The notes: generated by a model not told the origin, from the sequence alone. DNA of 64,000 nucleotides from a virus (IMGVR_UViG_3300032038_000036:1-64000); one strand, 5' to 3'; numbered from the stretch's first letter, positions 50,190-64,000 are shown. Program-made: numbers and translations.

Positions 50190-50349
50190 ATTTCTAAATC
50201 TTACTATATATTATATATAATTAAAAATAACAGCAAATTTTAGTATCAAATGAAAAAAAATTAAGAAAATCTTGAATTTCTTTTGACATTGTACTAATTT
50301 TGTATTATTATAAATTAAATAAACTAATAATTAAGTAAATTTCGGAAAT

Positions 50350-50463
50350 ATGAAACAACTCAGTCAACATATCGTATCTATGATCGGCTCATCAATTTTT
50401 GGTGAACCTTGTGGATTGAGCTTTGAACCTAATGGGATAGTTTCCGGATATACTGAAATATAA
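50350..50463 (+). CDS. leader peptide 1 of tRNA array (37 aa)
   Basis: MKQLSQHIVSMIGSSIFGEPCGLSFEPNGIVSGYTEI; TTCCGGA (50442-50448) complementary to terminator 5' arm. Confidence 0.75.
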   Translation: MKQLSQHIVSMIGSSIFGEPCGLSFEPNGIVSGYTEI

Positions 50464-50498: not shown

Positions 50499-50529
50499 GG
50501 ACTCCGGAACGCAAGTTTCGGAGTTTTTT
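50499..50529 (+). terminator. attenuator terminator 1
   Basis: GGACTCCGGAAC gcaa GTTTCGGAGTTT plus T tract. Confidence 0.85.
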
Positions 50530-50578: not shown

Positions 50579-50617
50579 TTTGAAATAAATCCGGAAGATA
50601 CTATTTTACAATTGTAA
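50579..50617 (+). promoter_or_regulatory. phage promoter motif ahead of tRNA array 1
   Basis: 39-nt motif copy. Confidence 0.65.
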
Positions 50618-50659: not shown

Positions 50660-50731
50660 GGCCGGTTCATCTAAGGGTCAGGATGACAGGTTTTCAACCT
50701 GTTCATAGGGGTTCGAATCCCCTACCGGCTA
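50660..50731 (+). tRNA. tRNA-Glu(TTC)
   Basis: cloverleaf; acagg tt TTC aa cctgt. Confidence 0.92.
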
Positions 50732-50735
50732 CGAA

Positions 50736-50810
50736 GCTCTGGAAATATCGGTTCGAATCCGACTAAAGCACCTAATAAGGCATGGTAGACTAACGGTAAG
50801 TCAACAGAGT
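50736..50810 (+). ncRNA. circularly permuted tRNA-like RNA (degenerate acceptor)
   Basis: T arm tcgg ttcgaat ccga precedes D arm gact aacggta agtc; ends pair GCTCTG/CAGAGT. Confidence 0.6.
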
Positions 50811-50838
50811 ATTTTTCTCAATTTCTAAAATTGAATTA

Positions 50839-50869
50839 GTTCTTTGACATATTGGTACAACAAAATAAA
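50839..50869 (+). promoter_or_regulatory. boxA-like antitermination element
   Basis: GTTCTTTGACATATTGG...; 29 nt identical to 61240-61268. Confidence 0.6.
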
Positions 50870-50873
50870 CTAA

Positions 50874-50989
50874 AGATTCTATGGGTGCCCATTTGGTGAA
50901 AGTCAAATCTTAGGTGGGCCGGGGGTTCGAATCCCTCACGTTCCGCTGGGAGCGTTGGCAGAGTGGTTTAATGTAGCCCTAAGGAATCT
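50874..50989 (+). ncRNA. circularly permuted tRNA-Ser-like RNA
   Basis: 3' half GGGGGTTCGAATCCCTC-ACGTTCC, 4-nt linker, 5' half GGAGCGT-TGGCAGAGTGGTTTAATG; fully paired acceptor; CTTAGG/CCTAAG and AGATTC/GAATCT closing helices. Confidence 0.8.
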
Positions 50990-50993
50990 ATTT

Positions 50994-51082
50994 GGAGAGT
51001 AATGCTTGATGGTGATAGCGGGTGCCTGCTAAGCATTGCGTCCGGCTAATCACCGGATCTGGTTCGATTCCAGTGCTCTCCG
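50994..51082 (+). tRNA. tRNA-Ser(GCT), 8/4 fold
   Basis: 8-bp acceptor GGAGAGTA/TGCTCTCC, 4-bp T stem, long V arm, G73. Confidence 0.85.
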
Positions 51083-51085
51083 CAA

Positions 51086-51185
51086 GTATTCAAATATATC
51101 CGCTAAGGAGTCAGAAGTTTAAATCTTTCCCTGGGTTTGAATGGCCTGGGTGGCAGAATGTTGAATGATTGCAATATTTGAATAC
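51086..51185 (+). ncRNA. degenerate permuted tRNA-like RNA on 12-bp stem
   Basis: GTATTCAAATAT/ATATTTGAATAC; V arm, T-like arm, CCTGGGT/GCCTGGG acceptor, TGGCAGAATG D-like arm. Confidence 0.55.
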
Positions 51186-51191
51186 ATATTT

Positions 51192-51277
51192 GGAGAATGA
51201 ACTGCGGCGGCCCGCAGGACTGTCTTGAAAACAGCTCGTTCGGTGAAACGGATTGGGATCGACACCTACTTTCTCCG
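51192..51277 (+). tRNA. tRNA-Ser(TGA), 8/4 fold with 6-bp D stem
   Basis: GGAGAATG/CTTTCTCC; CTGCGG cggc CCGCAG; T loop ATCGACA. Confidence 0.75.
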
Positions 51278-51279
51278 CA

Positions 51280-51446
51280 AATTTACTGGTGAAGAATAGA
51301 GATACTTCATAAGTTTGCAAAACTGGTGGAAGCAAGTTCCTTGTCGGTTCGAGTCCGGCCCATGGTCATTATGTACCGCGGTGGTGAAACTGGTAAACAC
51401 GCTGGTCCTTTTATAATTATTCTTTATTCGACAATTCCGTAAATTT
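51280..51446 (+). ncRNA. Y-RNA-like module A carrying permuted tRNA-Leu-like domain
   Basis: AATTTAC-TGG-TGAA-GAATAGAG-ATACTTC ... CTTTATTC-GACAATT-CC-GTAAATT enclosing T arm, CCATGGT/ACCGCGG acceptor, then D arm. Confidence 0.75.
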
Positions 51447-51452
51447 TTTATT

Positions 51453-51524
51453 GGGTCTATGTCTGAGCGGTGTAGGTGGTGGTCTGCAAAACCATTTAGC
51501 CCGGTTCGACTCCGGGTGGGCCCT
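51453..51524 (+). tRNA. tRNA-Cys(GCA)
   Basis: gtggt ct GCA aa accat; U73. Confidence 0.9.
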
Positions 51525-51526
51525 CA

Positions 51527-51666
51527 AATTATCTGGTGTATATAAGAGTTACTTCGATTACTTTTTTAATTAAGTGGTTTTAATGCAATTTTTTCAGAAT
51601 TGATTCCTCGGTTCGAATCCGAGAGAAAGTTTCATAACAATACTTTTATAGCTGTTCCGATAATTA
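51527..51666 (+). ncRNA. Y-RNA-like module B enclosing whole tRNA-like cloverleaf (TTC anticodon, 51560-51631)
   Basis: GAGTTACTTC motif; AATTATC/GATAATT closing stem. Confidence 0.7.
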
Positions 51667-51670
51667 ATTT

Positions 51671-51747
51671 GGGCTGATAGCGTAGGTGGTAGTTTGGCGC
51701 GCTGGACTGAAAATCCAGAGGCGAAGGTTCGACTCCTTCTCGGCCCA
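51671..51747 (+). tRNA. tRNA-Phe(GAA)
   Basis: ctgga ct GAA aa tccag. Confidence 0.9.
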
Positions 51748-51754
51748 CAATAAT

Positions 51755-51827
51755 GGAGGTCTGGCAGATATGGTATATGCGCCGGACTGAAAATCCGGTT
51801 AACCTGGTTCGAGTCCGGGGGCCTCCA
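51755..51827 (+). tRNA. tRNA-Phe(GAA)
   Basis: ccgga ct GAA aa tccgg. Confidence 0.92.
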
Positions 51828-52113
51828 CAATATAAATTGCAACCCAAAATGATATGGAAAATAAGTTGTAATTTATATTATAAAGACTTAGAGTAAATTG
51901 AGCAAAAGTCCCCCAGACGTGTATCTAAGTTTAAATTGTTTAAGCTCAACCGATGTTGAGTAAACTCTGGAAGTAATTATATTAAACAATATGCGCATAT
52001 TCATAATTATTTTCAGTATCTTGAGAGTTATCTTGTCCTTAAGGCGCCAAGAAGTACCTCGCTTACGTGGAATGTAGAGGAAATATTAAGTACAAGGATT
52101 TGGAAAGATTTAT

Positions 52114-52190
52114 CTGGGTGTATGCCGGTAATTGGTGATCCGTCCTCGCTTGGAACGAGGTTTATGCAGGCTCGAGTCCTGTCACCCAGA
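52114..52190 (+). tRNA. tRNA-Pro(TGG)
   Basis: cctcg ct TGG aa cgagg; atypical D arm. Confidence 0.82.
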
Positions 52191-52599
52191 CTCAATTGTA
52201 ATTTTCAAGATATGCGGACAAACGTTAAAGCAGCTGCAAGTCCAGCTCCAGAAATGGTATAGGACTCGGTAAGACCTATGTGGGTCGGTAGCTACGAACC
52301 CCTTAGTGAGACGAGGAAAGTGAGAAGATTACAATTATCTTATATACGGAGATACGTGGTGAGACGCCTAGTAGGGCCCGCGAGGTTCGATAGTTTAAGA
52401 TAGAATACCGTATAACAAATAAATGTTAGGAGATTGCCCACCGAGATTTAAGGTAGCTCCTTAAACAGCTGAATGGGAAACAGGTAAGCTCTGTTATGAT
52501 ATTGAATATCGGCCGTAAAAATATCAACAACTTGAAGAGAAATAGTTAACATTTATTTTTGAAAAATATAATGATAATTTCTATTTATTATTATATAAT

Positions 52600-52673
52600 C
52601 GGGATGTAGTACAGTTGGTTAGTATTCGTGTTTTGGGAACATGAGGTCGCTGGTTCGAGTCCAGTCATCCCGA
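52600..52673 (+). tRNA. tRNA-Pro(TGG)
   Basis: cgtgt tt TGG ga acatg. Confidence 0.92.
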
Positions 52674-52803
52674 CATCTCAACCTTGGCAAATAATCAATT
52701 ATATGTGTGAGAGAGCCATTAAGACGCGATAACTGAGGTAATCACTGAAACACATGCGAGCAATAGAGATAGTTATCTTGAGGTTGTCAATAATTGATTT
52801 TAT

Positions 52804-52877
52804 AGGGAGGTGGCCTAATTGGTTAAGGTTCGTGATTTGGGATCACGAGAGTGCGGGTTCGAGTCCCGTCCTCCCTA
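52804..52877 (+). tRNA. tRNA-Pro(TGG)
   Basis: cgtga tt TGG ga tcacg. Confidence 0.9.
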
Positions 52878-52880
52878 CAA

Positions 52881-52960
52881 ATTGGCTAGTGAAGTGGAGA
52901 GTTACTTCAATGATAATGATTTAAGACTGACTATTTACTTTCTGCGCTTATTCTGCCAAT
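52881..52960 (+). ncRNA. Y-RNA-like module C (no cargo)
   Basis: ATTGGC-TAG-TGAA-GTGGAGAG-TTACTTC ... ACTTTCTGC-GCTTATT-CT-GCCAAT. Confidence 0.7.
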
Positions 52961-52966
52961 AAATTT

Positions 52967-53038
52967 GGCCCTGTCATCTAACGGTCAGGATCTCAGGTTT
53001 TCAACCTGGTCATCGGAGTTCGAGTCTCCGCGGGGCTA
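52967..53038 (+). tRNA. tRNA-Glu(TTC)
   Basis: tcagg tt TTC aa cctgg. Confidence 0.92.
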
Positions 53039-53043
53039 CAAAT

Positions 53044-53120
53044 AATTCCTTGTTGTAGAGTAGAGTTACTTCAAAGAATGTGGTTTTAATAAGATACTTT
53101 ATTCGCTTATTACAGGAATT
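53044..53120 (+). ncRNA. Y-RNA-like module D (no cargo)
   Basis: AATTCCT-TGT-TGTA-GAGTAGAG-TTACTTC ... ACTTTATTC-GCTTATT-AC-AGGAATT. Confidence 0.7.
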
Positions 53121-53123
53121 TAT

Positions 53124-53197
53124 GGGGATATCATACTAACAGGTTAGGTGGCAACCCTTTCAAGGTTGAGATACGGGTTCGAGCCCCGTTATCCCTA
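53124..53197 (+). tRNA. tRNA-Glu(TTC)
   Basis: caacc ct TTC aa ggttg. Confidence 0.88.
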
Positions 53198-53426
53198 CAA
53201 AGTTCACATCCCAGACAGATGGGTAAAGTTAGCATTAGAGATATGGGTTATCCGGAAATTTTATCACATATCACTTGCTGGAGTTGTCATAATCGAGTGC
53301 GCATCAAGAAAGAACTCCCATAGGCTTAAGCTTAAATACATTGGGCGAGATGGAACAGAACTTTATTTATGCACTTACTAAAACGCGAAAAACGGGTTCT
53401 TGAGGTTATCCATAAACCTCAAATAT

Positions 53427-53499
53427 TGGGCTGTCGTCTAACTGGTAAGGATACCGCCCTGATAAGGCGGCGATCTCGGATCATTCCCGAGTGGCCCAA
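53427..53499 (+). tRNA. tRNA-Ile(GAT), atypical T loop
   Basis: ccgcc ct GAT aa ggcgg; T loop ATCATTC. Confidence 0.75.
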
Positions 53500-53505
53500 C
53501 AACAT

Positions 53506-53579
53506 TGGGATATACAGTATAATGGTTAGTACAGCGGACTCTGACTCCGCAGGTTTCGGTTCGAATCCGGATATCCCAA
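53506..53579 (+). tRNA. tRNA-Gln(CTG)
   Basis: gcgga ct CTG ac tccgc; U1-A72. Confidence 0.9.
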
Positions 53580-53664
53580 CGTACCTTTTGGTTGTAGGTG
53601 ACTTTTCAGCATAGGCACAGCGAGCTTCGCGCCGCCGTTTACTAATAATGGAACCTTCATTTAT

Positions 53665-53738
53665 TGGGCTATGCTGTGTAACGGTTAGCACGTCAGCCTT
53701 TGAAGCTGAAGGTCTGAGTTCGAATCTCGGTAGCCCAA
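53665..53738 (+). tRNA. tRNA-Gln(TTG)
   Basis: tcagc ct TTG aa gctga; U1-A72. Confidence 0.9.
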
Positions 53739-53739
53739 C

Positions 53740-53864
53740 AATAAAGGTATAGGTTCGAATCCTATATGGCAGTATTGAAGTCTATATGACTGATGGTTAA
53801 TAGTTCTAGAATGTTAATCTGAAAATGTAAACTCTGTCATTGGTGTAGGAGGTAGCATATTATT
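53740..53864 (+). ncRNA. circularly permuted tRNA-like RNA with about 60-nt linker
   Basis: AATAA-AGGT-ATAGG ttcgaat CCTAT-ATGGCAG ... CTGTCAT-TG-GTGT aggaggta GCAT-A-TTATT; all four stems pair. Confidence 0.8.
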
Positions 53865-53869
53865 TATAT

Positions 53870-53943
53870 TGAGCTGTATTTCAGTTGGTTAGAATGCCAT
53901 CCTGATAAGATGGAGGTCGTAGGTTCAAGTCCTATCAGCTCAA
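53870..53943 (+). tRNA. tRNA-Ile(GAT)
   Basis: ccatc ct GAT aa gatgg. Confidence 0.9.
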
Positions 53944-53947
53944 CTTT

Positions 53948-54173
53948 GGGAATTAGCAAAATGATTCGTATGAAAGTCATTATCTGTAAATATTTGCGTA
54001 AGGCCGCGATTAGGCCGAAAGTTCTCGAGATCAATAATATTTATAATAATGATAAGTAATGACAGAAAGAGAAATTAGTAAGATTAGCTAACTTACGAAA
54101 TTGAATTTGAAGAAGCGAACATACTGCGCTACCCGTGGGTGGGTAGAGGTCCTGTGAAAGTCAGTGGTTCCCG
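53948..54173 (+). ncRNA. large tRNA-like RNA with expanded D domain
   Basis: GGGAATTA/TGGTTCCC terminal stem, CTACCC/GGGTAG arm, AGGTC, CTG tgaaagt CAG T-like loop. Confidence 0.45.
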
Positions 54174-54268
54174 ACCGTATAATGAAGTTTTGAAAATTTC
54201 ATATTTTCAATAACACCGGTCCCATCCTATGCTACTCGAGGTAGGCATGGAACTAGGCCGGTGACCAT

Positions 54269-54341
54269 GGGGATGTCGTATAACGGTTTATTACGATGGT
54301 CTCATAAGCCGTAGAAGGTGGTTCGATTCCACCCATCCCTA
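54269..54341 (+). tRNA. tRNA-Met(CAT) (or lysidine Ile2)
   Basis: atggt ct CAT aa gccgt. Confidence 0.85.
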
Positions 54342-54445
54342 CACATGGAGGTTCACTTGCGCAGGACTAGTTAAACAGTACTTACAATTATATCTTGCAA
54401 AGAAAAACAATCGGATATCTGATAGTGATAAGATACCTCCACCCA

Positions 54446-54588
54446 AATTCCTTGTTGAATTGAAGAGTTACTTCTTAATCCGCCAGAAACTTTGGATTTT
54501 TAGCTTAATTGGTTAGAGCGCGGGCCTGCAAAGCCCGAGGTGATGGTTCAAGCCCATAAATATACTTTTCGAGAATGTTACAGGAATT
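54446..54588 (+). ncRNA. Y-RNA-like module E enclosing tRNA-Cys(GCA)-like cloverleaf with decayed acceptor
   Basis: GAGTTACTTC; AATTCCT/AGGAATT; gctt aattggtta gagc g cgggc ct GCA aa gcccg. Confidence 0.72.
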
Positions 54589-54592
54589 ACTT

Positions 54593-54665
54593 GCGGCTGT
54601 CGTATAACGGTTTATTATACTCGCCTTCCAAGCCAGGGACGTGGGTTCGACTCCCATCAGCCGCT
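54593..54665 (+). tRNA. tRNA-Gly(TCC)
   Basis: ctcgc ct TCC aa gccag. Confidence 0.9.
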
Positions 54666-54787
54666 CGCATTAGTAATGGAGTTTGGTAACGCAGAGTTTT
54701 CTCAAGGTTCTCCACGTTAAATTTAAAAACTGCTTTTAATGTGGGCACCGTTTTATATTCGAGAATATAGTACGGTGCTTATATAAT

Positions 54788-54860
54788 GCATCTGTCGTAT
54801 AACGGTTCAGTACGTTCGCCTTCCAAGCCTAAGACGTGGGTTCGACTCCCATCAGATGCT
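54788..54860 (+). tRNA. tRNA-Gly(TCC)
   Basis: ttcgc ct TCC aa gccta (mismatched stem). Confidence 0.85.
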
Positions 54861-54875
54861 CTATTCTTAATTGAT

Positions 54876-54949
54876 GGCCCTCGGGACAGATTGGTTTAAG
54901 TCGTCGGTCTCTCAAGCCGGAATAACGGGTTCGAATCCCGTGGGGGCTA
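54876..54949 (+). tRNA. tRNA-Glu(CTC)
   Basis: tcggt ct CTC aa gccgg. Confidence 0.88.
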
Positions 54950-54957
54950 CAATAATT

Positions 54958-55089
54958 CGCGGAGTGGTGAAATTTAAAATTAGACTTTATTCGCTGTTGC
55001 TTCGAATGAATGCTGTAGATTAGAGTTACTTCGGTATACACGCTTTTCAGGAAAAAAAGATTATGTTGGTTCGAGTCCAACCTCCGCGA
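54958..55089 (+). ncRNA. tRNA-like gene with permuted Y-like module F inserted in D loop
   Basis: CGCGGAG/CTCCGCG acceptor; GTG AAATT [about 54976-55032 insert ending GAGTTACTTC] GGTATA CAC. Confidence 0.72.
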
Positions 55090-55197
55090 CGACGCAGTTT
55101 CGAAAGACCCATACTCTGGTGTGATGAGATAATATCAAGGAAGCACATACTAGTGGCAAAAAGTAGAGGTTCAAAATGGTGGGAAGCCATTAACAAT

Positions 55198-55272
55198 GCG
55201 GGTGTAGTATAACGGTTATTACATGACATTGCCAATGTCGAGACGTGAGTTCGACTCTCATCATCCGCTCCA
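55198..55272 (+). tRNA. tRNA-Gly(GCC)
   Basis: tgaca tt GCC aa tgtcg; encoded CCA. Confidence 0.92.
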
Positions 55273-55328
55273 TTTTGGAATCATATTGAACAATTGGTGA
55301 ACTTTAGTGTGGTTCCTGTTCACCCCAT

Positions 55329-55401
55329 GCGGTAGTAGCTCAATTGGTAGAATGTCACCTTGCCAAGGTGAAGGTTGCGGGTTCGAGTCCCGTCTACCGC
55401 T
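55329..55401 (+). tRNA. tRNA-Gly(GCC)
   Basis: tcacc tt GCC aa ggtga. Confidence 0.92.
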
Positions 55402-55514
55402 CACAATAAAAATAGTCCAATGCCGATAAAGTTCTTACAGCACGGTATAAAAACATGTATATTTATCTGTAAGTAATATATGCATAGATAGTTTAAGTGG
55501 TTTCTATCATTTAT

Positions 55515-55661
55515 GCGGATGTAGTATAAAGGAAAGTACACCGTTAAAAAGATTTTTATGACCTTTTAACGCTGTTACATCGTAAGATTGTTGTAGTTGA
55601 GAGTTACTTCAAATTATTGCATTCCAAGCCGGGGATGTTGGTTCGAGTCCAACCGTCCGCT
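55515..55661 (+). ncRNA. tRNA-Gly(TCC) interrupted in anticodon stem by permuted Y-like module G
   Basis: GCGGATG/CGTCCGC acceptor; CCG [55544-55618 insert] GC at TCC aa GCCGG. Confidence 0.75.
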
Positions 55662-55937
55662 CAAATTATTTAAGATCTTAAATCCAGTTGTTGTTCCTGT
55701 TCTGGGAGAATATATTCCGGTATATCTCATAAAAACAAAAGCAGGGCCGTGACAATACAGAGGATTCCCTGAGGCCTCTGAAAAAATCCGCTTAGGGCCA
55801 TCTTCATGAGGTTAATGTTGAAATCCCGCCCTCGCAGCTTGAGCAACTATAAGCCTTGATTATAGTAAAAAACATATCGGGACAAGACAGGGAGAATGGT
55901 TGACCTGTCATTTTTATAAATAAATAGGAATTTTGTT

Positions 55938-56261
55938 ATGGAATACACTTACAGTGGATTAGAAAACAGAATTTCTGCGGAACACTTGAAAGCTGGTGAA
56001 GTTGTAAAAGTTACAGGAAAGGGGAATTCGATGACCCCAATATTAAAGTCTAGACAACCTGTAATTTGTATTCCAGTTGATGAAAATACTGTGTTAGCGA
56101 AACGTGACATAGTTTTGTGCAAAGTCAATGGACATTATTACCTTCACCTTATTTGGAGTTTGAAACCAGGAGATAGATTCTTGATTGGGAATAATCATAA
56201 TCATCCAAATGGGGTTATATCAAGAAACAATATCTTTGGTAAAGTGGTAGAAATTCTATGA
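55938..56261 (+). CDS. S24/S26 family peptidase-like protein
   Basis: GNSMTP, DIVLCKV, YYLHLI, IFGKV. Confidence 0.8.
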   Translation: MEYTYSGLENRISAEHLKAGEVVKVTGKGNSMTPILKSRQPVICIPVDENTVLAKRDIVLCKVNGHYYLHLIWSLKPGDRFLIGNNHNHPNGVISRNNIFGKVVEIL

Positions 56262-56306
56262 GTTTCACAAACTCATTATTTTTCCTTAATTCCTTTTTAT
56301 TAACAT

Positions 56307-56381
56307 GGTGTCGTTAACTTAACTGGTGAAAGGCGGTGACTGTGAATCACTGAGATGTCGGTTCGAATCCGATGCGACACA
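56307..56381 (+). tRNA. tRNA-His(GTG)
   Basis: ggtga ct GTG aa tcact; G-1. Confidence 0.88.
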
Positions 56382-56547
56382 CGCGATAAAACTATAATAA
56401 ATTCTAAGTAATGCTGTCGAGGTTAGTCCGAAGGTAACGAAGAAGTGTACACCTGCAACTCAGGAGAGGAAAATTCGCAGAAACATCGGTGAGGGATTTA
56501 TTTACAATTTGAGTTTTTGATAAGTTGTTTAAGAAATTGTTTTATAT

Positions 56548-56631
56548 GGTGGTATTCGTCTAGAGGCCGATGACGCCAGATTGTGGTCCTGGTAGCGAGA
56601 GCTCACGTTGGTTCGAATCCAACATACCACC
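56548..56631 (+). tRNA. tRNA-His(GTG) with long variable arm
   Basis: ccaga tt GTG gt cctgg; G-1:C73; V arm tagcgagagctcac. Confidence 0.85.
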
Positions 56632-56796
56632 CGAATATCTTGAAGGACATACCTGTATATGAACCAGGAGAAGTTACCGTAGGCAACCAATGTGTAGCAT
56701 CATACAATCAAGGCAAAGCATTAGAGTTGTACGGGATAGTGAAATGTAAAGGTATCTATCGAGGCTTATGCTTGTGCCAGTCAAACAAGCATCATT

Positions 56797-56883
56797 GGAG
56801 GTGTGGCAGAGCGGTCGATTGCACCGGTCTTGAAAACCGGAGGCCGTGAGAGCGGCCCGTAGGTTCGAATCCTACCGCCTCCG
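56797..56883 (+). tRNA. tRNA-Ser(TGA)
   Basis: ccggt ct TGA aa accgg; long V arm. Confidence 0.93.
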
Positions 56884-56903
56884 CAATAATATATAGAGAG
56901 AAA

Positions 56904-57224
56904 ATGAAAATCGATGAAAAGAGATTTTTACAAGAAAGCGATAAAACCGGTCGTTTTATTGTAAAATCAAAAATAACAGGAAAGAAATATTTTGTAGAAC
57001 CTATTGGTAATACACATTCTGCAGATTGGGGAGATTTGGATCCTGCAACAAAAAAGATGACTGGATCTTATGGAGAACGATATGAAGGATGTGTACCTGA
57101 AAAAGATTCTCTTATAACTGAAGCAAACGGATTTGAGAAAATTGAATTGCTTGATGCTGGTGTTTCTCCATTATCAGAAATTGATAGAAGAGATAGAGAA
57201 TATCAGAAACAGATGGGTTTATAA
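56904..57224 (+). CDS. hypothetical protein in tRNA array
   Basis: ORF. Confidence 0.7.
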   Translation: MKIDEKRFLQESDKTGRFIVKSKITGKKYFVEPIGNTHSADWGDLDPATKKMTGSYGERYEGCVPEKDSLITEANGFEKIELLDAGVSPLSEIDRRDREYQKQMGL

Positions 57225-57260
57225 TTTTATTTTTAATTACAAATATAATTATATAATAAA

Positions 57261-58376
57261 ATGAAAGACTTATTTGAGTTTTTATCAGATAATATTTATG
57301 AAAAGGATATATTCCTTGAGACAGTAAATATGATTGTTGATGAAACAATTAATGAAAGTTTCCAAGCATCAATATTAACTGAATTAGCAAAGAGAATTAA
57401 AGATGCTGAAAAGGAACATGCTGACCAAGATAAAAAAGAAGAACAAAGATACAAAGAAGAAGGTCGCGGTTATAAGCCAACAAAGACAGCAAAAACTTTC
57501 GCATCTATTTTTGGTCCATTAACAGAAACTCCAAGATGGGGTGACAAGAAAACTGGTATTCGTGGTTTGAAATGGTCAGAAATTAAAGATAGTGATTTCA
57601 AACAATATAAAGGTGATGATAAAGAATTTGTAAAGTTCTTAAAATCAGTTTATGCAAAGAAAGCAATTGCCGATATGATTGTTTGTGCTCCAGGTACTAA
57701 AGATATTGTATGTTTTATTAAAGGATATGCAAAAACTTTAGGAGATGTAAGAGTATATTACTTTGCAACAGAAGGTTGGAAAAAGGGTGTTCAAGAGAAA
57801 ACTGAAAAGAAATACAAATATGATGTACGTTCTTTGAAGGTTAATGAAACACTTGAATTGATTAAAGATTTTGACGTATATGTTCTTGAAGTTACAGAAT
57901 CAATGATTAAAGATTATGATGAACTTCATAAAGATCGTACTGATGCTCAAAAAGGTTCAATTGAAATGGACGAAGCAAGTATGAAAACTTTGCTTAAACA
58001 ACAAAAAGCTCGTTATGATGCAATGGTTAAAGAAATAAAAGCAAAGAAACTTCAAGATGATCCAAATATTTTATTCAATGACATAAAGAAAGCAAATGAT
58101 GATGTTGTTGCTTTGTTCCAAAAGGTAATGTCAAAACCTGAAAATATGGATATGCGTTTTGATTTATCAGATTTAATGAGATATGTTTCTTATGCATATG
58201 AACAATTCTACAAATCAATGAAATCTCTTAGAACTGCTAAACGTAGTGAAGATAGATATGGTAAGGGATATGGGAAATATGATAAAGAACGTTCTGATGA
58301 AGAAATTCGTGATGCAAAAGAATATCTTGAAAAGGTAAACAAAATGGTTAAGGAGATTGAAGACCAATTGAAATAA
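57261..58376 (+). CDS. Lys/Glu-rich hypothetical protein
   Basis: 371-aa ORF. Confidence 0.75.
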   Translation: MKDLFEFLSDNIYEKDIFLETVNMIVDETINESFQASILTELAKRIKDAEKEHADQDKKEEQRYKEEGRGYKPTKTAKTFASIFGPLTETPRWGDKKTGIRGLKWSEIKDSDFKQYKGDDKEFVKFLKSVYAKKAIADMIVCAPGTKDIVCFIKGYAKTLGDVRVYYFATEGWKKGVQEKTEKKYKYDVRSLKVNETLELIKDFDVYVLEVTESMIKDYDELHKDRTDAQKGSIEMDEASMKTLLKQQKARYDAMVKEIKAKKLQDDPNILFNDIKKANDDVVALFQKVMSKPENMDMRFDLSDLMRYVSYAYEQFYKSMKSLRTAKRSEDRYGKGYGKYDKERSDEEIRDAKEYLEKVNKMVKEIEDQLK

Positions 58377-58401
58377 CCTTAAAGATAATACTATTTATAA
58401 T

Positions 58402-58613
58402 TACGGGCAGTCATAGGTTGGTGCACAGGCCTATGAATCGAAGCAGCCTGTTAGCTACGGCAGCAGGGGAAATCGTTCGTTCCGTTCCTTAAGTGCGTGG
58501 TCTGAGGAATCTATAGAAGCGTTAGTTAGAGTTGTTGCACCTTTGTATCTTCGGATATGTGCCACATCCTGTAGAGGGCGAGAAACCTCGTTGAAACTCG
58601 AAAGAGCCACGTG
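58402..58613 (+). ncRNA. unknown structured RNA with pseudoknot
   Basis: GC-rich non-coding; TCATAGGTT/GGCCTATGA hairpin whose loop GGTGCA pairs with TGCACC (58536-58541). Confidence 0.5.
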
Positions 58614-58616
58614 TAT

Positions 58617-58685
58617 CGGGAGTTAGCTCAACGATAGAGCCATGGATTTTACTGTGAGACGGTTGTTTAACTCAATCACTCCCGA
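58617..58685 (+). pseudogene. pseudo-tRNA with 6-nt anticodon loop
   Basis: perfect CGGGAGT/ACTCCCG acceptor, GCTC/GAGC D stem, degenerate D and T loops. Confidence 0.65.
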
Positions 58686-58690
58686 CAAAA

Positions 58691-58751
58691 TTGGTTACGC
58701 AGTAAATGGTACATGTATGCTAGCTATTTGGTTCGATTCCAACGTAACCAA
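58691..58751 (+). ncRNA. tRNA-like RNA lacking a proper anticodon arm
   Basis: TTGGTTACG/CGTAACCAA stem plus TTGG ttcgatt CCAA. Confidence 0.55.
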
Positions 58752-58942
58752 CTAATAATTTGGATGCCTGCATTATCTTTTTTGACGGGTGAAAGCAGAT
58801 GGAAGATAAAAACCAGCTCGGCCATTAAACAACAGAATGTGTCCAAATAAATAATAGGTTGAATAATGACGTAACCTTAATCGTGATGGTCATTCGTGTG
58901 GTTCGGTGCCTAAGACTGCGTTAATGGAACAAGGACACTTAT

Positions 58943-59017
58943 GGGTCGGTGGCGCAAATGGTAAGACGCGCTTGCCTTAGAAGCAAGATCTTGGGGGTTC
59001 GACTCCCCCTCGGCCTA
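58943..59017 (+). tRNA. tRNA-Leu(TAG) lacking long variable arm
   Basis: cttgc ct TAG aa gcaag; V loop atctt. Confidence 0.85.
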
Positions 59018-59146
59018 CGCCTAATAGAATACTTGGGAGACTAAGAAAGGAAACGTAATAAAGATACATAAGGCCTTTGTTGATTTATTACAGACTCATC
59101 GCAAGATTTTCCTGGAGTCGGCAGTGGAATACCAAGAGGCAGATCT

Positions 59147-59222
59147 AGGAGCATAGCTCAGCTGGTTCAGTAGCGTCAGTCTTACAAACTGAAGGTCATG
59201 GGTTCGATCCCCATTGCTCCTA
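59147..59222 (+). tRNA. tRNA-Val(TAC)
   Basis: tcagt ct TAC aa actga. Confidence 0.9.
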
Positions 59223-59469
59223 CGAATACGATACCGCGTTTATGGGTAAGTTTATCCGGTTAAAATAAAACCACCTTATAACTCATTATTCAATGACTTG
59301 GTGATAGGAACTTATCGTTACCTATGAAAAAAGGAAATCATCAAGCTGAAAGAGATAGTATAACGACCTTGTCATGGCAACGTTATACATTTTTAGTAAG
59401 ACCAGTTATGTGGGTATTTGTATGTCGCGAAGTACAAATATTCATTGGTTAGAATAATTGAGTGTTTAT

Positions 59470-59548
59470 GCGGCTGTGGCGCAATTGGTCGACGCAGCGG
59501 TCTAAGAAGCCGTCCTTCGGGGTATGGGTTCGAGTCCCATCAGCCGCA
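59470..59548 (+). tRNA. tRNA-Leu(AAG)
   Basis: gcggt ct AAG aa gccgt. Confidence 0.88.
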
Positions 59549-59696
59549 CAAAGAGATACTAAGAGGTTTACTCAATGATGTATTCAAAGTACAAGGATAT
59601 TAGAGTATGGGATAGCGGGCGCTAACAGTGTGATACAGAACTTCGCACACTTAGTAACAACATAGGCGAGTGTACAGTAACTTATGGCTCTTAAAT

Positions 59697-59784
59697 ACCT
59701 TCTTGGTGGAAATGGTAGACACGCCAGTCTAAGAAACTGGTCCGAAGTAACAGTAGGGTGCGGGTTCAAATCCCGTGGGAGGTA
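59697..59784 (+). tRNA. tRNA-Leu(AAG)
   Basis: ccagt ct AAG aa actgg; long V arm. Confidence 0.88.
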
Positions 59785-59788
59785 CAAA

Positions 59789-59854
59789 TAGAACTTATCC
59801 GGTGAATGCGCGCGGGATGAGAATACTAGGAGGGTTCGACTCCCTCAGTTCTAT
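59789..59854 (+). ncRNA. tRNA-like RNA lacking anticodon arm
   Basis: TAGAACT/AGTTCTA plus GAGGG ttcgact CCCTC. Confidence 0.6.
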
Positions 59855-59886
59855 TTATATAATAAATTAATATAATAGAGAGAAAA

Positions 59887-60135
59887 ATGATTACTCATGA
59901 TTTAAAGACAATTGTAAAAGGTTCTGCCGTTCTTGATTGTGTAAAGGCAGGTGGTATTGCTGTTTATCATATAACAGTAGAAGATGGTACAATTTATTCA
60001 CTTGATATTGATTTGTCTGATAAGCATGATGTTGGAGAAACTGCTACATTTATGTCTCATTATGATAAAGCTTTAATATTGATGAGATGGATAAGACGTG
60101 CAATTGATAATGAAGAATTGTATAAGATAAACTAA
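59887..60135 (+). CDS. hypothetical protein in tRNA array
   Basis: ORF; same upstream AGAGAGAAAA as 56904. Confidence 0.65.
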   Translation: MITHDLKTIVKGSAVLDCVKAGGIAVYHITVEDGTIYSLDIDLSDKHDVGETATFMSHYDKALILMRWIRRAIDNEELYKIN

Positions 60136-60263
60136 TTTGTTGTATCAATATATTTTTATACGAGGATAGGCTTTAATGCCTGCGGCTTGAACCGCTGCTG
60201 TCCGATTTATAACGGCTAACGAGATTTAATCTCCGTGAGAACAAATGGATCCTCGTTTTTAAT

Positions 60264-60342
60264 GGCCCGATGGCGGAATTGGTCTACGCAGCTGTCTCAA
60301 AAGCAGTGCTTCGGCGTCTGGGTTCGAATCCCAGTTGGGCTA
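60264..60342 (+). tRNA. tRNA-Leu(CAA)
   Basis: gctgt ct CAA aa gcagt. Confidence 0.92.
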
Positions 60343-60479
60343 CTCGCAATTGACATTACTTATGTAATTAGAATGATTTGGAGAAAAAAATTTCTAAATC
60401 ATTCATTTTTTGTGAAAATATTTTGTCCATAAGACTATTTTATATTTATTATTAATTAAATTAAAAGAAAATATCGCAA

Positions 60480-60590
60480 ATGCAATTAGTCAATACATAT
60501 AAACAAATATTAGACCAAACATTAGATAATGCTTGGAATAAGGATTATGCGTTAAATTTTGACCACTTGCAGAATGATATGGAAGGATAA
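60480..60590 (+). CDS. leader peptide 2 of tRNA array (36 aa)
   Basis: MQLVNTYKQILDQTLDNAWNKDYALNFDHLQNDMEG; GACCACTTGCAG (60561-60572) complementary to CTGCAAGTGGTT (60618-60629). Confidence 0.78.
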   Translation: MQLVNTYKQILDQTLDNAWNKDYALNFDHLQNDMEG

Positions 60591-60621
60591 TAAGAATATA
60601 ACTATAAAATGATATAGCTGC

Positions 60622-60658
60622 AAGTGGTTAGGTGAAAAACTTAACCACTTATTTTTTT
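60622..60658 (+). terminator. attenuator terminator 2
   Basis: AAGTGGTTAGG tgaaaaa CTTAACCACTT plus A(T)7. Confidence 0.85.
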
Positions 60659-60689
60659 GTAAAAATTTCTAAAATATTTTCATAAATAA

Positions 60690-60728
60690 TTTGAAATTAA
60701 AACAGAAGATACTATATTATAATTGTAA
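60690..60728 (+). promoter_or_regulatory. phage promoter motif ahead of tRNA array 2
   Basis: 39-nt motif copy. Confidence 0.72.
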
Positions 60729-61038
60729 CAAAATTAAATATTATTTAATAACAAATATTATTTGATTTTTAGTTCTTTGAAATATTGAACTCAAGAGAAA
60801 TAAAATCCACTGGGTTATTGAAGAATAGGTTCAATTCCGATTCTATAACGTAGTCAGCCGGTACTCCTAAATAGGCAAAAGGAGCAATAATTCAGTAAAG
60901 GTACAAAGGTACTATATATGAGGGATTGAAAATTTCCATGGGAATTTGAAAATCAGGGTAAAGTGACCCACCACATGTAGAGCAAGGATTCGCACTTAAA
61001 TGAACATTATAGAAGAATAGTACTGGATTTTTATAAAT

Positions 61039-61109
61039 TGGATCATGGTGTAATGGTAACACGCAAGATTTTGGTCCTTGCGTTCTGGGTTCGAGCCCCG
61101 GTGATCCAA
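61039..61109 (+). tRNA. tRNA-Gln(TTG)
   Basis: caaga tt TTG gt ccttg. Confidence 0.9.
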
Positions 61110-61151
61110 CAAATTGATGTAGAAATTTTTTTGAAATTTTTCTTACAAAAG

Positions 61152-61190
61152 TTTGAAATATTGAAATTAAGTTCTATATTAATATTGTAA
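61152..61190 (+). promoter_or_regulatory. phage promoter motif
   Basis: 39-nt motif copy. Confidence 0.72.
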
Positions 61191-61239
61191 TTTTCAAATA
61201 ATATTTAGAAAAATGTTATTTGATTATTTACACTTGAGA

Positions 61240-61268
61240 TCTTTGACATATTGGTACAACAAAATAAA
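61240..61268 (+). promoter_or_regulatory. boxA-like antitermination element
   Basis: TCTTTGACATATTGGTACAACAAAATAAA direct repeat. Confidence 0.6.
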
Positions 61269-61532
61269 TTTAATAAGGATCCTCTGAGATGGGTGCCCTA
61301 AGGTAGAAGCTTGAGGATTGAAATGGATAATGTTTTATGCAACATCAAAAGCAGCTGTTTATTCAGCGGCGCCCGTGGGTATTAATCCCGATGAAAATAT
61401 CGCCTTATTAAAACAAAAAACTGATTTGGAAGAGGAGTGGTGGAAAACCCCTTTCAATGGGATGCCAAGCAACCCAGCGAAATAGTTCAGTAAATATATG
61501 TAGTAATACAAACAGAATTTCCTTATCATTCT

Positions 61533-61605
61533 GGTCTTATAATTTTAATGGTTAGAATACCTGATTAGTAATCAGGATGTTTGAGTTCGAATCTCAATGG
61601 GACCT
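61533..61605 (+). tRNA. tRNA-Thr(AGT)
   Basis: cctga tt AGT aa tcagg. Confidence 0.85.
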
Positions 61606-61747
61606 CAATATGAATGCCTTCGATGTAAATTGGAAGATTATTTAATAAGTTGGAATAACATTCATAATTTAGGCCGAGAGAATACCACAGGAGCAGATTG
61701 AAATAAGTATTAGCTGATGTGGAACAATATTCTTGATGACGCCATTT

Positions 61748-61821
61748 GCTCTGTTAGCTTTAATTGGTAGAGCGCCGCACTTGTAATGCGGATGTTATCG
61801 GTTCGAGTCCGGTACGGAGCT
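61748..61821 (+). tRNA. tRNA-Thr(TGT)
   Basis: ccgca ct TGT aa tgcgg. Confidence 0.93.
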
Positions 61822-61878
61822 CCCGAAAGTACGATAGGTTTCAGGAATTTTCCCATCGTACTAAAAAATTCCAAATTT

Positions 61879-61952
61879 GGGCTTGCATGTACCAAGGCTG
61901 GCGAGGTTCCCTTGCAAGGAACTTGTGGAGAGTTCGATTCTCTTCGGGTCCA
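61879..61952 (+). tRNA. tRNA-Ala(TGC)
   Basis: gttcc ct TGC aa ggaac; G3:U70. Confidence 0.87.
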
Positions 61953-62104
61953 CAAATACAAAACTTCTATAAAGGAAATTTACTTAAGCTGCAGATTTTG
62001 TAAAAAGTATGTTATAGATGCGTCCGTTAGAAGTAATTTGATAGTTCATTTCCCTATGAAGGTTAAGGAGTCGGTAGAAGTAGAATCCGGCGCGGACATT
62101 TTTT

Positions 62105-62176
62105 GCTCCTGTAGCTCAGTGGTAGAGCAGTAGACTGTTAATCTATTGGTCGTGGGTTCAATCCCCTCCGGGAGCG
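62105..62176 (+). tRNA. tRNA-Asn(GTT)
   Basis: gtaga ct GTT aa tctat. Confidence 0.92.
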
Positions 62177-62284
62177 CGAACATGGCGAAACATATCCAGT
62201 AACTATAGGTGAACAGAAAGGTGAACAGCAAATAACCGAGTATGACTGGTGAATTTCACAAATCATGAATGATGCTGCATTCAT

Positions 62285-62410
62285 TTGTTTTTAGTTTAAT
62301 TTGGATAAAACACCCGGATGAAACCGGGAGATGTAAAGAGCTGCTTAATTAGGCCTGATTGCAATGAGGAAACCGGTTAAGTTAGTTGGGTTCGAATCCC
62401 ACAAAATAGC
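62285..62410 (+). ncRNA. tRNA-Phe-like RNA with about 53-nt hairpin insertion in T stem
   Basis: TTGTTTT/AAAATAG, GTTT/AAAC D stem, CCCGG atgaaa CCGGG, GT[insert]GGG ttcgaat CCCAC. Confidence 0.6.
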
Positions 62411-62424
62411 AAATTAATAAAATT

Positions 62425-62498
62425 GGGGATATAGCTATAATGGTCAGAGCGGCGGCCTGTTAAGCCGATGGTTGTGGGTTCGAATCCCTCTGTCCCCG
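62425..62498 (+). tRNA. tRNA-Asn(GTT)
   Basis: gcggc ct GTT aa gccga. Confidence 0.92.
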
Positions 62499-62584
62499 CT
62501 AGTGGTTTGAACTTGAATTAACAAGCGAAAGGATAAAAGCTTTCACACGAATATAAATCCGAAAATGCTAAATTATCCAATGAT

Positions 62585-62673
62585 GGCGCGATGATGGAAT
62601 TGGTAGACATAGCAGACTTAAAATCTGCTGGGCCGTAAGGTCCGTGCGGGTTCGAGTCCCGCTCGCGCTACCA
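62585..62673 (+). tRNA. tRNA-Leu(TAA)
   Basis: gcaga ct TAA aa tctgc; CCA. Confidence 0.93.
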
Positions 62674-62799
62674 ATAATATGAGTGTGGAAATAACTTGTA
62701 ACTCAAGTAGAGAGTTTCCAGTAAATGGGTGGCGAGAAGAGTAAAGAGCTTACAATTTAGCCATATTATTATTTTGGATCACTTAGGTGACAGATATTT

Positions 62800-62874
62800 G
62801 GTCCATTGGTATAACGGTTAGAATATGTGACTGTCGATCACAAGATGAGGGTTCGACTCCCTCATGGACCGCCA
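62800..62874 (+). tRNA. tRNA-Asp(GTC)
   Basis: tgtga ct GTC ga tcaca; CCA. Confidence 0.92.
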
Positions 62875-62895
62875 AATAACTAAGTGATATATTTT

Positions 62896-62969
62896 GGTGG
62901 CGTGGTTTGAATGGTTACAATGCCGGACTGTCAATCCGTGTGGTGGGGGTTCGAATCCCCTCGTCACCG
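62896..62969 (+). tRNA. tRNA-Asp(GTC)
   Basis: ccgga ct GTC aa tccgt. Confidence 0.9.
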
Positions 62970-63010
62970 CAAATAGAAAATAATAACTTATAAATATAAA
63001 TTAAAAACAT

Positions 63011-63037
63011 ATGAAAACAATGAAACGAAAACGTTAG
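63011..63037 (+). CDS. Lys-rich mini leader MKTMKRKR upstream of tRNA-Lys cluster
   Basis: ATG AAA ACA ATG AAA CGA AAA CGT TAG followed by mutually exclusive helices. Confidence 0.45.
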   Translation: MKTMKRKR

Positions 63038-63135
63038 TTGTGTATGTTTCCTGAGAGAAATTGGTATTATGTTTTAACCAAAAGAAGCATGCACATAAAA
63101 TCAAAATCAAAAACAAATGAATTTATTATGTGTAT

Positions 63136-63212
63136 GCCCTCTTAGCTGAGTTGGTTAAAGCTGCGGCCTTTTAAGCCGAGGATCCAGGGTTCGAGTCCCT
63201 GAGGGGGTACCA
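63136..63212 (+). tRNA. tRNA-Lys(TTT)
   Basis: gcggc ct TTT aa gccga; CCA. Confidence 0.92.
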
Positions 63213-63215
63213 TTT

Positions 63216-63290
63216 GCTCTCATGGCGTTAATTGGTTAGCGTACCAGACTTTTAATCTGCGAGGTCAGGGTTCGAATCCCTGTGGGAGCA
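63216..63290 (+). tRNA. tRNA-Lys(TTT)
   Basis: ccaga ct TTT aa tctgc. Confidence 0.92.
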
Positions 63291-63304
63291 CAATTATAAA
63301 TTAT

Positions 63305-63378
63305 GCCTCTGTAGCTGAGCTGGTTAAAGCTGCGGCCTCTTAAGCCGAGGATCGTGGGTTCGAATCCCACCGGAGGTA
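63305..63378 (+). tRNA. tRNA-Lys(CTT)
   Basis: gcggc ct CTT aa gccga. Confidence 0.92.
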
Positions 63379-63404
63379 CACAACGGTTTCATATTGTTTA
63401 ATAT

Positions 63405-63491
63405 GGCTCCGTGGCGAAATTGGTAGTACGCATCAGACTTAAAATCTGAGGTCCAGAAATGGGCGTGTGGGTTCGACTCCCACCGGGGCTA
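63405..63491 (+). tRNA. tRNA-Leu(TAA)
   Basis: tcaga ct TAA aa tctga. Confidence 0.93.
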
Positions 63492-63658
63492 CAAATTAAA
63501 TTTGGATGTGACTGCAGCAATATATATAAAATTCATATTTAAGTGGAAGCTGTCACGGCTGCTTACCTGATATAAAGTAAGTAATAAATGTGTAAATGTT
63601 GACTTGCCTTAAGAAAGCAAATGTCAAATCCACTCGGTGAATTAATATGAATTTCCTT

Positions 63659-63731
63659 GGGGAGGTCGTTTAGTGGTCCAGGACAGTAGGCTTACATCCT
63701 ACCAACCAGAGTTCGATTCTCTGCCGCCCCA
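63659..63731 (+). tRNA. tRNA-Val(TAC) with Glu-like D arm
   Basis: gtagg ct TAC at cctac. Confidence 0.82.
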
Positions 63732-63950
63732 CTCTTGCATGCCGTGCAAAAATTCATGGAGAAGTTAAATGGCTAAAGGTTGTTCTTTGAAGTATTAATG
63801 CGTACGACAATTATGGAGAAGATATTCATGAATCTTATTAGTGATTAGATAAGTTGATAATGGCGTAATTAACCATTTGATGATATTCTTTTTGGTAATA
63901 AGTTTAACACAGCTCCAATACAGTTCTCGATAATCTGGGAAATCGAAGTT

Positions 63951-64000
63951 GGTCCGTTGGTTGAACGGTAACAATGCCGGCTTGTCACGCCGTGTGGTAC
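63951..64000 (+). tRNA. tRNA-Asp(GTC), truncated by window end
   Basis: ccggc tt GTC ac gccgt. Confidence 0.8.

Follow-up and report, generated by a model that had tools for sequence, protein, structure and literature searches.

Candidate leader-peptide attenuators ahead of the two tRNA arrays of a Lak-like giant phage

For decades it has been debated why phages carry transfer RNA (tRNA) genes and by what means dozens of these are regulated. The stretch IMGVR_UViG_3300032038_000036:1-64000, 64,000 nucleotides long and hereafter called the window, raises this question in a concrete form. It covers the initial 64 kb of an IMG/VR virus contig of 100,726 bp and contains two tRNA arrays, each preceded by a short open reading frame (ORF) and an intrinsic terminator. 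Do these ORFs, here named leader 1 and leader 2 after the arrays that follow them, control the tRNA genes behind them? According to the sequence evidence, leader 2, like leader 1, would be a ribosome-mediated transcription attenuator whose output reflects the decoding speed of the codons that its array serves; this reading is given a probability of about 0.78. It had been proposed from the window alone (the original prediction) and has gained support, the ORF being in frame in relatives, the codon sets kept, changes in both helices compensated and the same logic of leader and array recurring in distant megaphages.

Leader 2 and its alternative helices

Leader 2 lies between the end of array 1 and the start of array 2 and is organised as follows:

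60371-60404, + strand: intrinsic terminator ending array 1, a 14-pair stem with a T-run, just 3' of tRNA-Leu(CAA) (60264-60343)
60480-60590, + strand: leader 2 ORF, 36 codons from ATG to TAA, with codons 2-26 as the sensor
60515-60536, + strand: small hairpin inside the leader 2 ORF (CCAAACATT / AATGCTTGG), seen in the predicted fold
60558-60572, + strand: segment 1, the 5' strand of the antiterminator, in codons 27-31 of 36
60618-60633, + strand: segment 2, the shared strand, pairing with segment 1 (antiterminator) or with segment 3 (terminator)
60640-60658, + strand: segment 3, the 3' arm of the terminator (60640-60650), together with the T-run (60652-60658)

The 36-codon ORF had been described at 60480-60590 and is present there in the ORF listing. 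Because array 1 is closed by a terminator of its own (60371-60404), leader 2 is the start of a new transcription unit. The antiterminator that had been proposed, GACCACTTGCAG (60561-60572) opposite CTGCAAGTGGTT (60618-60629), is complementary with one G:U pair. RNAfold extends it to 14 pairs between 60558-60571 and 60618-60631, with an energy of -21.2 kcal/mol (z = -4.1, none of 200 shuffles being equally stable). The terminator consists of a stem at 60622-60650 followed by seven Ts (60652-60658), and thus overlaps the antiterminator as stated in the original prediction. The 3' strand of the antiterminator doubles as the 5' arm of the terminator, which makes the two helices mutually exclusive. 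The antiterminator therefore excludes the terminator and has one strand at the end of the ORF, an arrangement found in attenuators.

In the proposed mechanism, a weak upstream promoter would start the transcript, which would be translated at once. A ribosome reaching the stop codon would cover segment 1 (60558-60572), leaving segment 2 to pair with segment 3, and transcription would end at 60652-60658. If instead a ribosome stalled in codons 2 to about 26, where no charged cognate tRNA was available, segment 1 would stay exposed and free to pair with segment 2; this pairing would block the terminator and RNA polymerase would continue into array 2. Since array 2 supplies the tRNAs whose shortage caused the stall, the outcome would be negative feedback. 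Such a design would be the three-segment form of classical ribosome-mediated attenuation. A fourth segment, in which the start region pairs with segment 1 in the folds, was considered and rejected, as for leader 1 it is not conserved in relatives. We infer that the leader is translated and its promoter used, and likewise the direction and size of the response and its physiological trigger, candidates for the last being a mismatch in codon usage with a Prevotella-type host and loss of tRNAs in infection or defence.

Leader 1, in front of array 1, is built from the same parts:

50350-50463, + strand: leader 1 ORF, 37 codons, with codons 2-27 as the sensor
50442-50448, + strand: segment 1, TTCCGGA, the antiterminator partner, in codons 32-36 of 37
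50500-50529, + strand: leader 1 terminator, with the 5' arm at 50500-50510, the 3' arm at 50515-50525 and the T-run at 50524-50529
50503-50509, + strand: segment 2, TCCGGAA, within the terminator 5' arm, pairing with TTCCGGA

The two leaders were said to be alike in geometry, and this is the case: they have 37 and 36 codons, and the distance from the stop codon to the 5' arm of the terminator is 36 nt in leader 1 and 31 nt in leader 2. Both terminator stems have 11-12 bp and are followed by a T-run. The gene beside leader 1 (44670-50189) is divergent, on the minus strand, so the leader 1 terminator is not part of an upstream operon.

Codons of the leaders and tRNAs of the arrays

ARAGORN finds 61 tRNA genes on the contig, all on the + strand between 50660 and 69794. 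Most are supported by Rfam, of which RF00005 (tRNA) is the only family matched in 50000-72000. They are arranged in two arrays:

50660-60343, + strand: tRNA array 1, 29 tRNAs and four embedded small protein genes; tRNAs for Glu, Ser, Cys, Phe, Pro, Ile(GAT), Gln, Met, Gly, His, Leu(TAG/AAG/CAA) and Val
61039-64000, + strand: the part of tRNA array 2 in the window, extending on the contig to 69794; tRNAs for Gln, Thr (three), Asn (three), Leu(TAA) (two), Asp (four), Lys (five), Val, Tyr, Ile(TAT), Trp (two), Ser(GCT), Met (three), Ala and Gln, with three odd tRNA-like genes

Each leader is a short ORF upstream of an array and is enriched in codons cognate to it, as expected of an attenuator. 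Codons were taken as decodable under standard wobble plus U34 reading of four-fold boxes. By this rule all 25 codons of the leader 2 sensor are decodable by array 2, where a fraction of 0.61 is expected from phage codon usage (binomial p = 4.6e-6), and 25 of the 26 codons of the leader 1 sensor are decodable by array 1, the expected fraction being 0.48 (binomial p = 1.3e-7). Non-cognate codons of leader 2 are confined to the last ten, and so are those of leader 1 apart from a Lys at codon 2; a ribosome stalled in these last ten codons would mask segment 1. When codons exclusive to one of the arrays are counted, leader 1 has them in a ratio of 18:1 and leader 2 of 0:21 (Fisher test on these four counts, p = 1.7e-10).

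The composition of leader 2 agrees with the original prediction in other respects as well. Gln, Leu, Val, Asn, Thr, Lys, Asp or Ala are encoded by 21 of the 25 codons from 2 to 26, all four Leu codons among them are TTA, and AAA and AAG are both present. Ser, Pro, Cys and Arg are lacking in the peptide, with Gly, Glu, Phe and His occurring only past codon 26. The match between leaders and arrays extends to the level of the anticodon, as is seen for Leu and Ile:

Leader 1 and array 1: Leu codons CTC and TTG, Ile codons ATC and ATT; tRNAs Leu(AAG), Leu(CAA) and Ile(GAT)
Leader 2 and array 2: Leu codon TTA (four times), Ile codon ATA; tRNAs Leu(TAA) (two) and Ile(TAT)

Several tRNAs had been predicted to lie beyond position 64000. 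A tRNA-Tyr(GTA) is found at 64479-64564, an ATA decoder, Ile(TAT), at 65512-65585, and two tRNA-Trp(CCA) at 65824-65897 and 69569-69641. A Val(GAC), named as possible in array 2, is not found. Ala had been counted among the visible array-2 tRNAs; neither ARAGORN nor Rfam gives one in the window, and the sole Ala(TGC) is located outside it, at 68643. Success with Tyr, Trp and Ile(ATA) is by itself weak evidence, because a phage with 61 tRNAs would carry these somewhere; the strength of the case is the partition of tRNAs and leader codons, together with the covariation described below. The partition of the code between the two arrays, as it had been put forward, holds as an approximate split, with Gln(TTG), Ser(GCT), Met(CAT) and Val(TAC) present in both.

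As had been observed in the window, tRNA-Arg is absent, also from the 61 tRNAs of the whole contig. Arg codons are lacking in both leaders; in three more distant genomes (G001-G003, see below) Arg tRNAs are present in other arrays, behind leaders that contain Arg. Since the contig makes up about 35% of the phage genome, another array, one containing Arg, is predicted in the remainder. Array 2 also contains tRNA-like genes to which ARAGORN assigns "anticodons" of two or four nucleotides (L026 120-205, 2949-3022 and 5725-5794; contig 64120, 66949 and 69725), and others that are matched by Rfam and missed by ARAGORN (L026 1249-1318, 2103-2157 and 5819-5889). The Rfam-only matches indicate that the inventory of array tRNAs is incomplete. 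Large structured gaps are present between tRNAs, for example at 60800-61038 and 61280-61530.

AT-rich DNA yields many short ORFs, and hairpins followed by a T-run are not in excess in this region (9 sites, with 9.2 expected), so that leader 2 could be a chance ORF beside an ordinary terminator at the end of an operon. Against this, the terminator of array 1 is located upstream of the leader 2 promoter and the neighbour of leader 1 is divergent. Leader 2 moreover is the longest run of array-2-decodable codons in the six frames of the 100-kb contig (27 codons, the next having 20), and the ORF stays in frame in relatives; the probability of a chance arrangement is close to negligible. Longer array-1 runs at 40344 and 82724 were rejected as leaders, both being antisense frames of real genes with no ATG start. 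A hairpin with a T-run at 64447-64472, before the tRNA-Tyr, was likewise rejected as a further module, as no leader ORF is present there.

Close relatives and distant megaphages

Relatives were reached through homologues of an 82-aa gene of the window in 20 IMG/VR loci. Five distinct close relatives (L004, L005/L025, L006=L007, L008 and L022/L024) have the two-array layout and both leader regions, with 67-90% DNA identity. Both leaders are intact ORFs in L004, L005/L025, L006, L008 and L022, with peptide identities of 57-92% and all insertions and deletions in frame. Substitutions in the sensor part all stay within the codon set of each phage's own array, apart from exceptions in L025 and L008 as judged by the tRNAs detected there. 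In the carboxy-terminal parts the amino acids vary freely and the pairing to the terminator arm is kept. In L006, array 1 has Leu(TAA) twice and Ile(TAT), and leader 1 contains three TTA codons and an ATA; in our phage (G000) array 1 and leader 1 have neither. Only six contigs, all of them among those already compared, were recovered by a profile scan built on the leader 2 alignment. In L025, leader 1 (L025 1426-1557) is frame-shifted near its end, giving 43 codons that run through segment 1; this copy may be in decay or have been re-tuned.

Compensatory changes are found in both helices. In leader 2 of L006, a T to C change in the shared strand is accompanied by A to G in both segment 1 and segment 3, and in leader 1 of L008 and L006 a G to A change in the shared strand goes with C to T in both partners. 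Thus an intrinsic terminator, conserved with covariation, is present between leader ORF and array, and the covariation is three-way, including the strand at the end of the ORF. In the four helices 87-98% of the aligned cells are paired, versus 17-66% after a shift of the partners by 1-3 columns. Such covariation is expected of a switch with alternative pairing; coming from 5-6 sequences, with one or two lineage events per helix, it is suggestive and not statistically strong. The hairpin at 60515-60536 has a C:G to T:A double change in the L022 and L008 alignment rows; it is conserved, and as a conjecture it might be a pause hairpin, or pause site, for RNA polymerase.

Array regions were also fetched from four more distant genomes (G001-G004), two of which are rated complete (356 and 553 kb), and eight further modules of ORF plus terminator are present in them. 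They were found with an RNAfold-based scan and inspection; a stricter detector of terminator plus complementarity missed true modules and gave false ones overlapping tRNAs. The peptides show no sequence relationship to leaders 1 and 2, yet they mirror the tRNAs behind them. One leader, in which Arg, Glu, Gln and Cys abound, is followed by an array with Glu (two), Arg (two), Gln (two) and Cys; a second, rich in Met, His, Pro, Cys and Gly, by His, Pro, Arg (two), Cys and Met; and a third, with Ile, Thr, Val, Asn, Lys, Ala, Phe, Ser, Trp and Asp, by an array of exactly those ten. The ten modules were compared with the sensor fixed as all codons except the first and the last ten, a rule derived from our phage. 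The own array is the best match for nine of the ten leaders, and in nine of ten its z-score is between 2.0 and 6.3. Summed over the modules, the own-array z is 41.0, versus 0.8 +/- 6.7 for permuted pairings, with none of 200,000 permutations reaching 41.0. An alternative partner of the terminator 5' arm is located at the end of the ORF or just past its stop codon in all ten modules. In three modules of other clades the T-run lies 10-24 nt before the first tRNA, which leaves no room for another promoter and makes the attenuator the only entry to those arrays.

The leaders might instead encode small functional peptides with terminators of their own, their resemblance to the arrays being a by-product of composition. 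Conservation at 57-92% identity would fit such peptides, as would the promoter-like site and the terminator that each ORF has. However, unrelated peptides mirror the following tRNA set in ten modules, the match is one of codons (TTA versus CTC and TTG, ATA versus ATC and ATT), the carboxy-terminal amino acids vary freely while their pairing to the terminator arm stays, and no Pfam or Rfam matches are found for the ORFs. Small functional peptides are a very improbable explanation.

The published and unannotated genome of Lak-A2 (MK250019.1) contains two modules directly before tRNA arrays, at 30969-31097 on the + strand and 419136-419023 on the - strand, identical or nearly identical to modules of G002 (read as L049 and L050). 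Leaders 1 and 2 are not present in Lak-A2, which has these other modules, e and f, instead. The NAD-dependent DNA ligase of our contig, which has about 27% G+C and an estimated completeness of 35% (CheckV), is most similar over its full length to those of the Prevotella megaphages Lak-A2, Lak-B and Lak-C, with 35% identity. By these comparisons the phage is best regarded as a Lak-like giant phage, probably a relative of the Lak phages and not a member of the group. Shine-Dalgarno-like motifs are present in four of its 51 long ORFs; their rarity and the similarity of the ligase to those of Prevotella Lak phages fit a host of the Bacteroidota type. The cultured phage T5 (AY543070.1 28000-37300, L051) was rejected as a further example, because its small ORFs do not mirror the neighbouring tRNAs; T5.070, before tRNA-Cys, is Cys-rich and resembles a CxxC zinc ribbon.

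Two protein-coding genes of the tRNA region are described here for completeness. The product of a 107-aa ORF in array 1 (55938-56261) matches the Peptidase_S24 (LexA/UmuD-like) domain with E = 1.3e-6. The 82-aa ORF used to reach the relatives (59887-60135) has no Pfam match; it is located in or beside the tRNA arrays of the 20 IMG/VR megaphage loci, on contigs of up to 553 kb, and its homologues are 59-100% identical. In G003 the homologue is found between the leader terminator and the first tRNA. Its product may be a tRNA-related factor.

Promoters, precedents and meaning

Promoters are predicted on both sides of each leader:

50273-50311, + strand: promoter-like region before leader 1, TTGACA-N17-TATTAT, 11/12
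50580-50617, + strand: consensus phage promoter between the leader 1 terminator and array 1
60413-60452, + strand: promoter-like region before leader 2, TTGTCC-N18-TATTAT, 9/12
60691-60728, + strand: consensus phage promoter between the leader 2 terminator and array 2, TTGAAA-N16-TATATT in a 19-nt motif

The regions before leaders 1 and 2 are weaker than the consensus promoters and of another class, and they have the pattern TGAAW..TTTTG.C..ACTAWTTT in common. A regular expression derived from them matches only these two places in 100 kb, a circular test of specificity, as it was built from the leader sites themselves. In L006, near-identical boxes (TTGAAW-N17-TAAATT) are located before both leaders. 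The consensus promoters are strong, with TTGAAA-N16-TATATT before both arrays, and belong to a larger set: the 19-nt motif, TACTATATTATAATTGTAA or TACTATATTATAWTTGTAA with TTTGAAAT ahead of it, is present at 15 sites of the window in 5319-61190, where 1.7 are expected, always on the + strand (for example at 5950, 10339, 22313, 30547, 32199, 37951, 50599 and 60710). It precedes protein genes too, with a copy before the protein gene at 84496, and is probably one temporal promoter class of the phage.

The consensus promoters allow for another explanation, in which the leader cassettes of this clade are largely decoupled from the arrays: the downstream promoters would drive the tRNAs, and read-through would have little effect or interfere with the promoter. 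That these promoters (50580-50617 and 60691-60728) stand between terminator and array, are conserved in all close relatives and have counterparts before protein genes is in keeping with decoupling. Still, the sensor codons and both helices are under purifying and compensatory selection in this same clade, the terminator abuts the first tRNA in other clades, and nothing blocks a read-through transcript from entering the tRNAs; decoupling is decidedly unlikely. The simplest reading is tandem control, by a programmed promoter directly before the tRNAs and an upstream promoter gated by the attenuator. With a consensus promoter downstream of the terminator, the attenuator adds to promoter-driven expression in this clade and is not its only gate; it probably contributes an on-demand component to a programmed basal expression.

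A number of points weigh against leaders 1 and 2 as attenuators of their arrays. The gap between attenuator and array is not free of promoters, and further promoter-like sites are located inside the arrays (61153 and 61243); given these and the consensus promoters, read-through from the leaders may be a minor share of array transcription. The promoters of the leaders themselves are weak matches and predicted only. A Shine-Dalgarno sequence is absent, yet this is the rule for the long ORFs of this phage (see above). Among the codons, the Lys at codon 2 of leader 1 is an exception, and the GTC at codon 4 of leader 2 requires U34 superwobble by Val(TAC). In the relatives, leader 1 of L025 has TTA and TCA codons with no cognate tRNA detected in its array 1, and leader 2 of L008 has two ATA codons with no Ile(TAT) detected; ARAGORN clearly misses genes in these arrays, where odd tRNA-like genes are numerous. 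Module e, of the Lak type, is not significant on ARAGORN calls alone. To these is added the small number of lineage events behind the covariation.

Multivalent leader-peptide attenuators are known from enterobacteria, where they control ilvGMEDA (Ile/Leu/Val) and thr (Thr/Ile). Like these, the phage leaders have a short ORF, presumably translated, with regulatory codons for more than one amino acid, a terminator, an antiterminator that would depend on the position of the ribosome, and read-through as the output. The enterobacterial attenuators regulate biosynthetic enzymes, whereas the phage leaders precede tRNA genes. The latter sample 12-13 amino acids, mostly 1-5 times each, in place of runs of one to three amino acids, and use three segments (ORF end, shared strand and terminator 3' arm) where the classical layout has four. 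They are also phage-borne, in this clade with a second promoter behind them, and have no relationship in sequence or in Rfam to ilvGMEDA or thr; known Rfam leader families (Trp, His, Leu, Thr, Phe leaders and others) give no match at the gathering score. In the trp, his, leu and pheA leaders, too, stalling occurs at hungry codons and the signal is the supply of charged tRNA, but each of these senses a single amino acid, with feedback on amino-acid synthesis in E. coli, where the phage feedback would act on tRNA supply. The pheA attenuator is de-repressed 6- to 7-fold on loss of one tRNA-Phe gene (PMC3082878), so attenuators of this type sense tRNA abundance besides amino acids.

T-box riboswitches similarly couple the status of tRNA to the choice between terminator and antiterminator upstream of translation-related genes. 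A T-box, however, binds one uncharged tRNA directly, through specifier codon and T-box bulge and without translation, while the phage element is a conserved ORF with many codons; the Stem I and antiterminator bulge of the T-box (RF00230) have no Rfam match in 50000-72000. The E. coli tRNA-Phe gene pheV reportedly has tandem promoters with an attenuator-like region after the upstream one. As this would concern a single tRNA for a single amino acid on a bacterial chromosome, the similarity in layout is a lead only.

The nearest functional parallel is the trn operon of Anabaena sp. PCC 7120, a cryptic array of 26 tRNAs induced by translational stress (PMC8421152, PMC10272220): there too, expression of an accessory tRNA array stays low until impaired translation turns it on. 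Unlike the phage leaders, it is controlled by a repressor, TrcR, on direct repeats over the -10 box and the start site, and the words leader, attenuation and terminator appear in neither paper. With this precedent for a tRNA array responding to general stress (PMC8421152), the phage elements could be real attenuators that sense general translation capacity (ribosome availability or any block of elongation) instead of specific array tRNAs. The three-segment design would read through whenever no ribosome gets to the end of the ORF. A general sensor would need neither codon sets specific to the array, nor covariation of these with array content, nor two different leaders per genome, and is therefore unlikely. 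Full-text literature searching gave no description of leader-peptide attenuation of phage or megaphage tRNA genes. The kind of switch is known, from trp, his, leu, pheA, thr and ilvGMEDA; new are the tRNA-gene target and the breadth of sampling, over 12-13 amino acids.

Phage tRNAs rescue infection from tRNA-targeting defences (PMC10264068, PMC11555353, PMC12409363). If leaders 1 and 2 are attenuators, each would read the decoding speed of 17-19 different codons and feed back on the matching tRNA genes. Phage tRNA arrays would then be regulated on demand and not simply expressed, classical attenuation would reach from amino-acid supply to tRNA supply, and the sorting of tRNAs into blocks in these genomes would be explained. 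In these modules nature would also offer portable sensors with which to follow how chosen codon sets are decoded. Both reporters and in vitro systems of defined tRNA content lend themselves to a direct test of the idea, and modules are present in the published Lak-A2 genome (MK250019.1) as well. For the Lak-like giant phages as a group, we consider it probable that the accessory tRNA supply is organised as closed feedback loops, in which the leaders gating the arrays would sample the encoded tRNA species one codon after another, sense the failing subset of host tRNAs, be it through codon mismatch, host shut-off or a tRNA-cleaving defence, and replace only that subset; tRNA genes would then have their first case of leader-peptide attenuation, and no known attenuator would be more multivalent.

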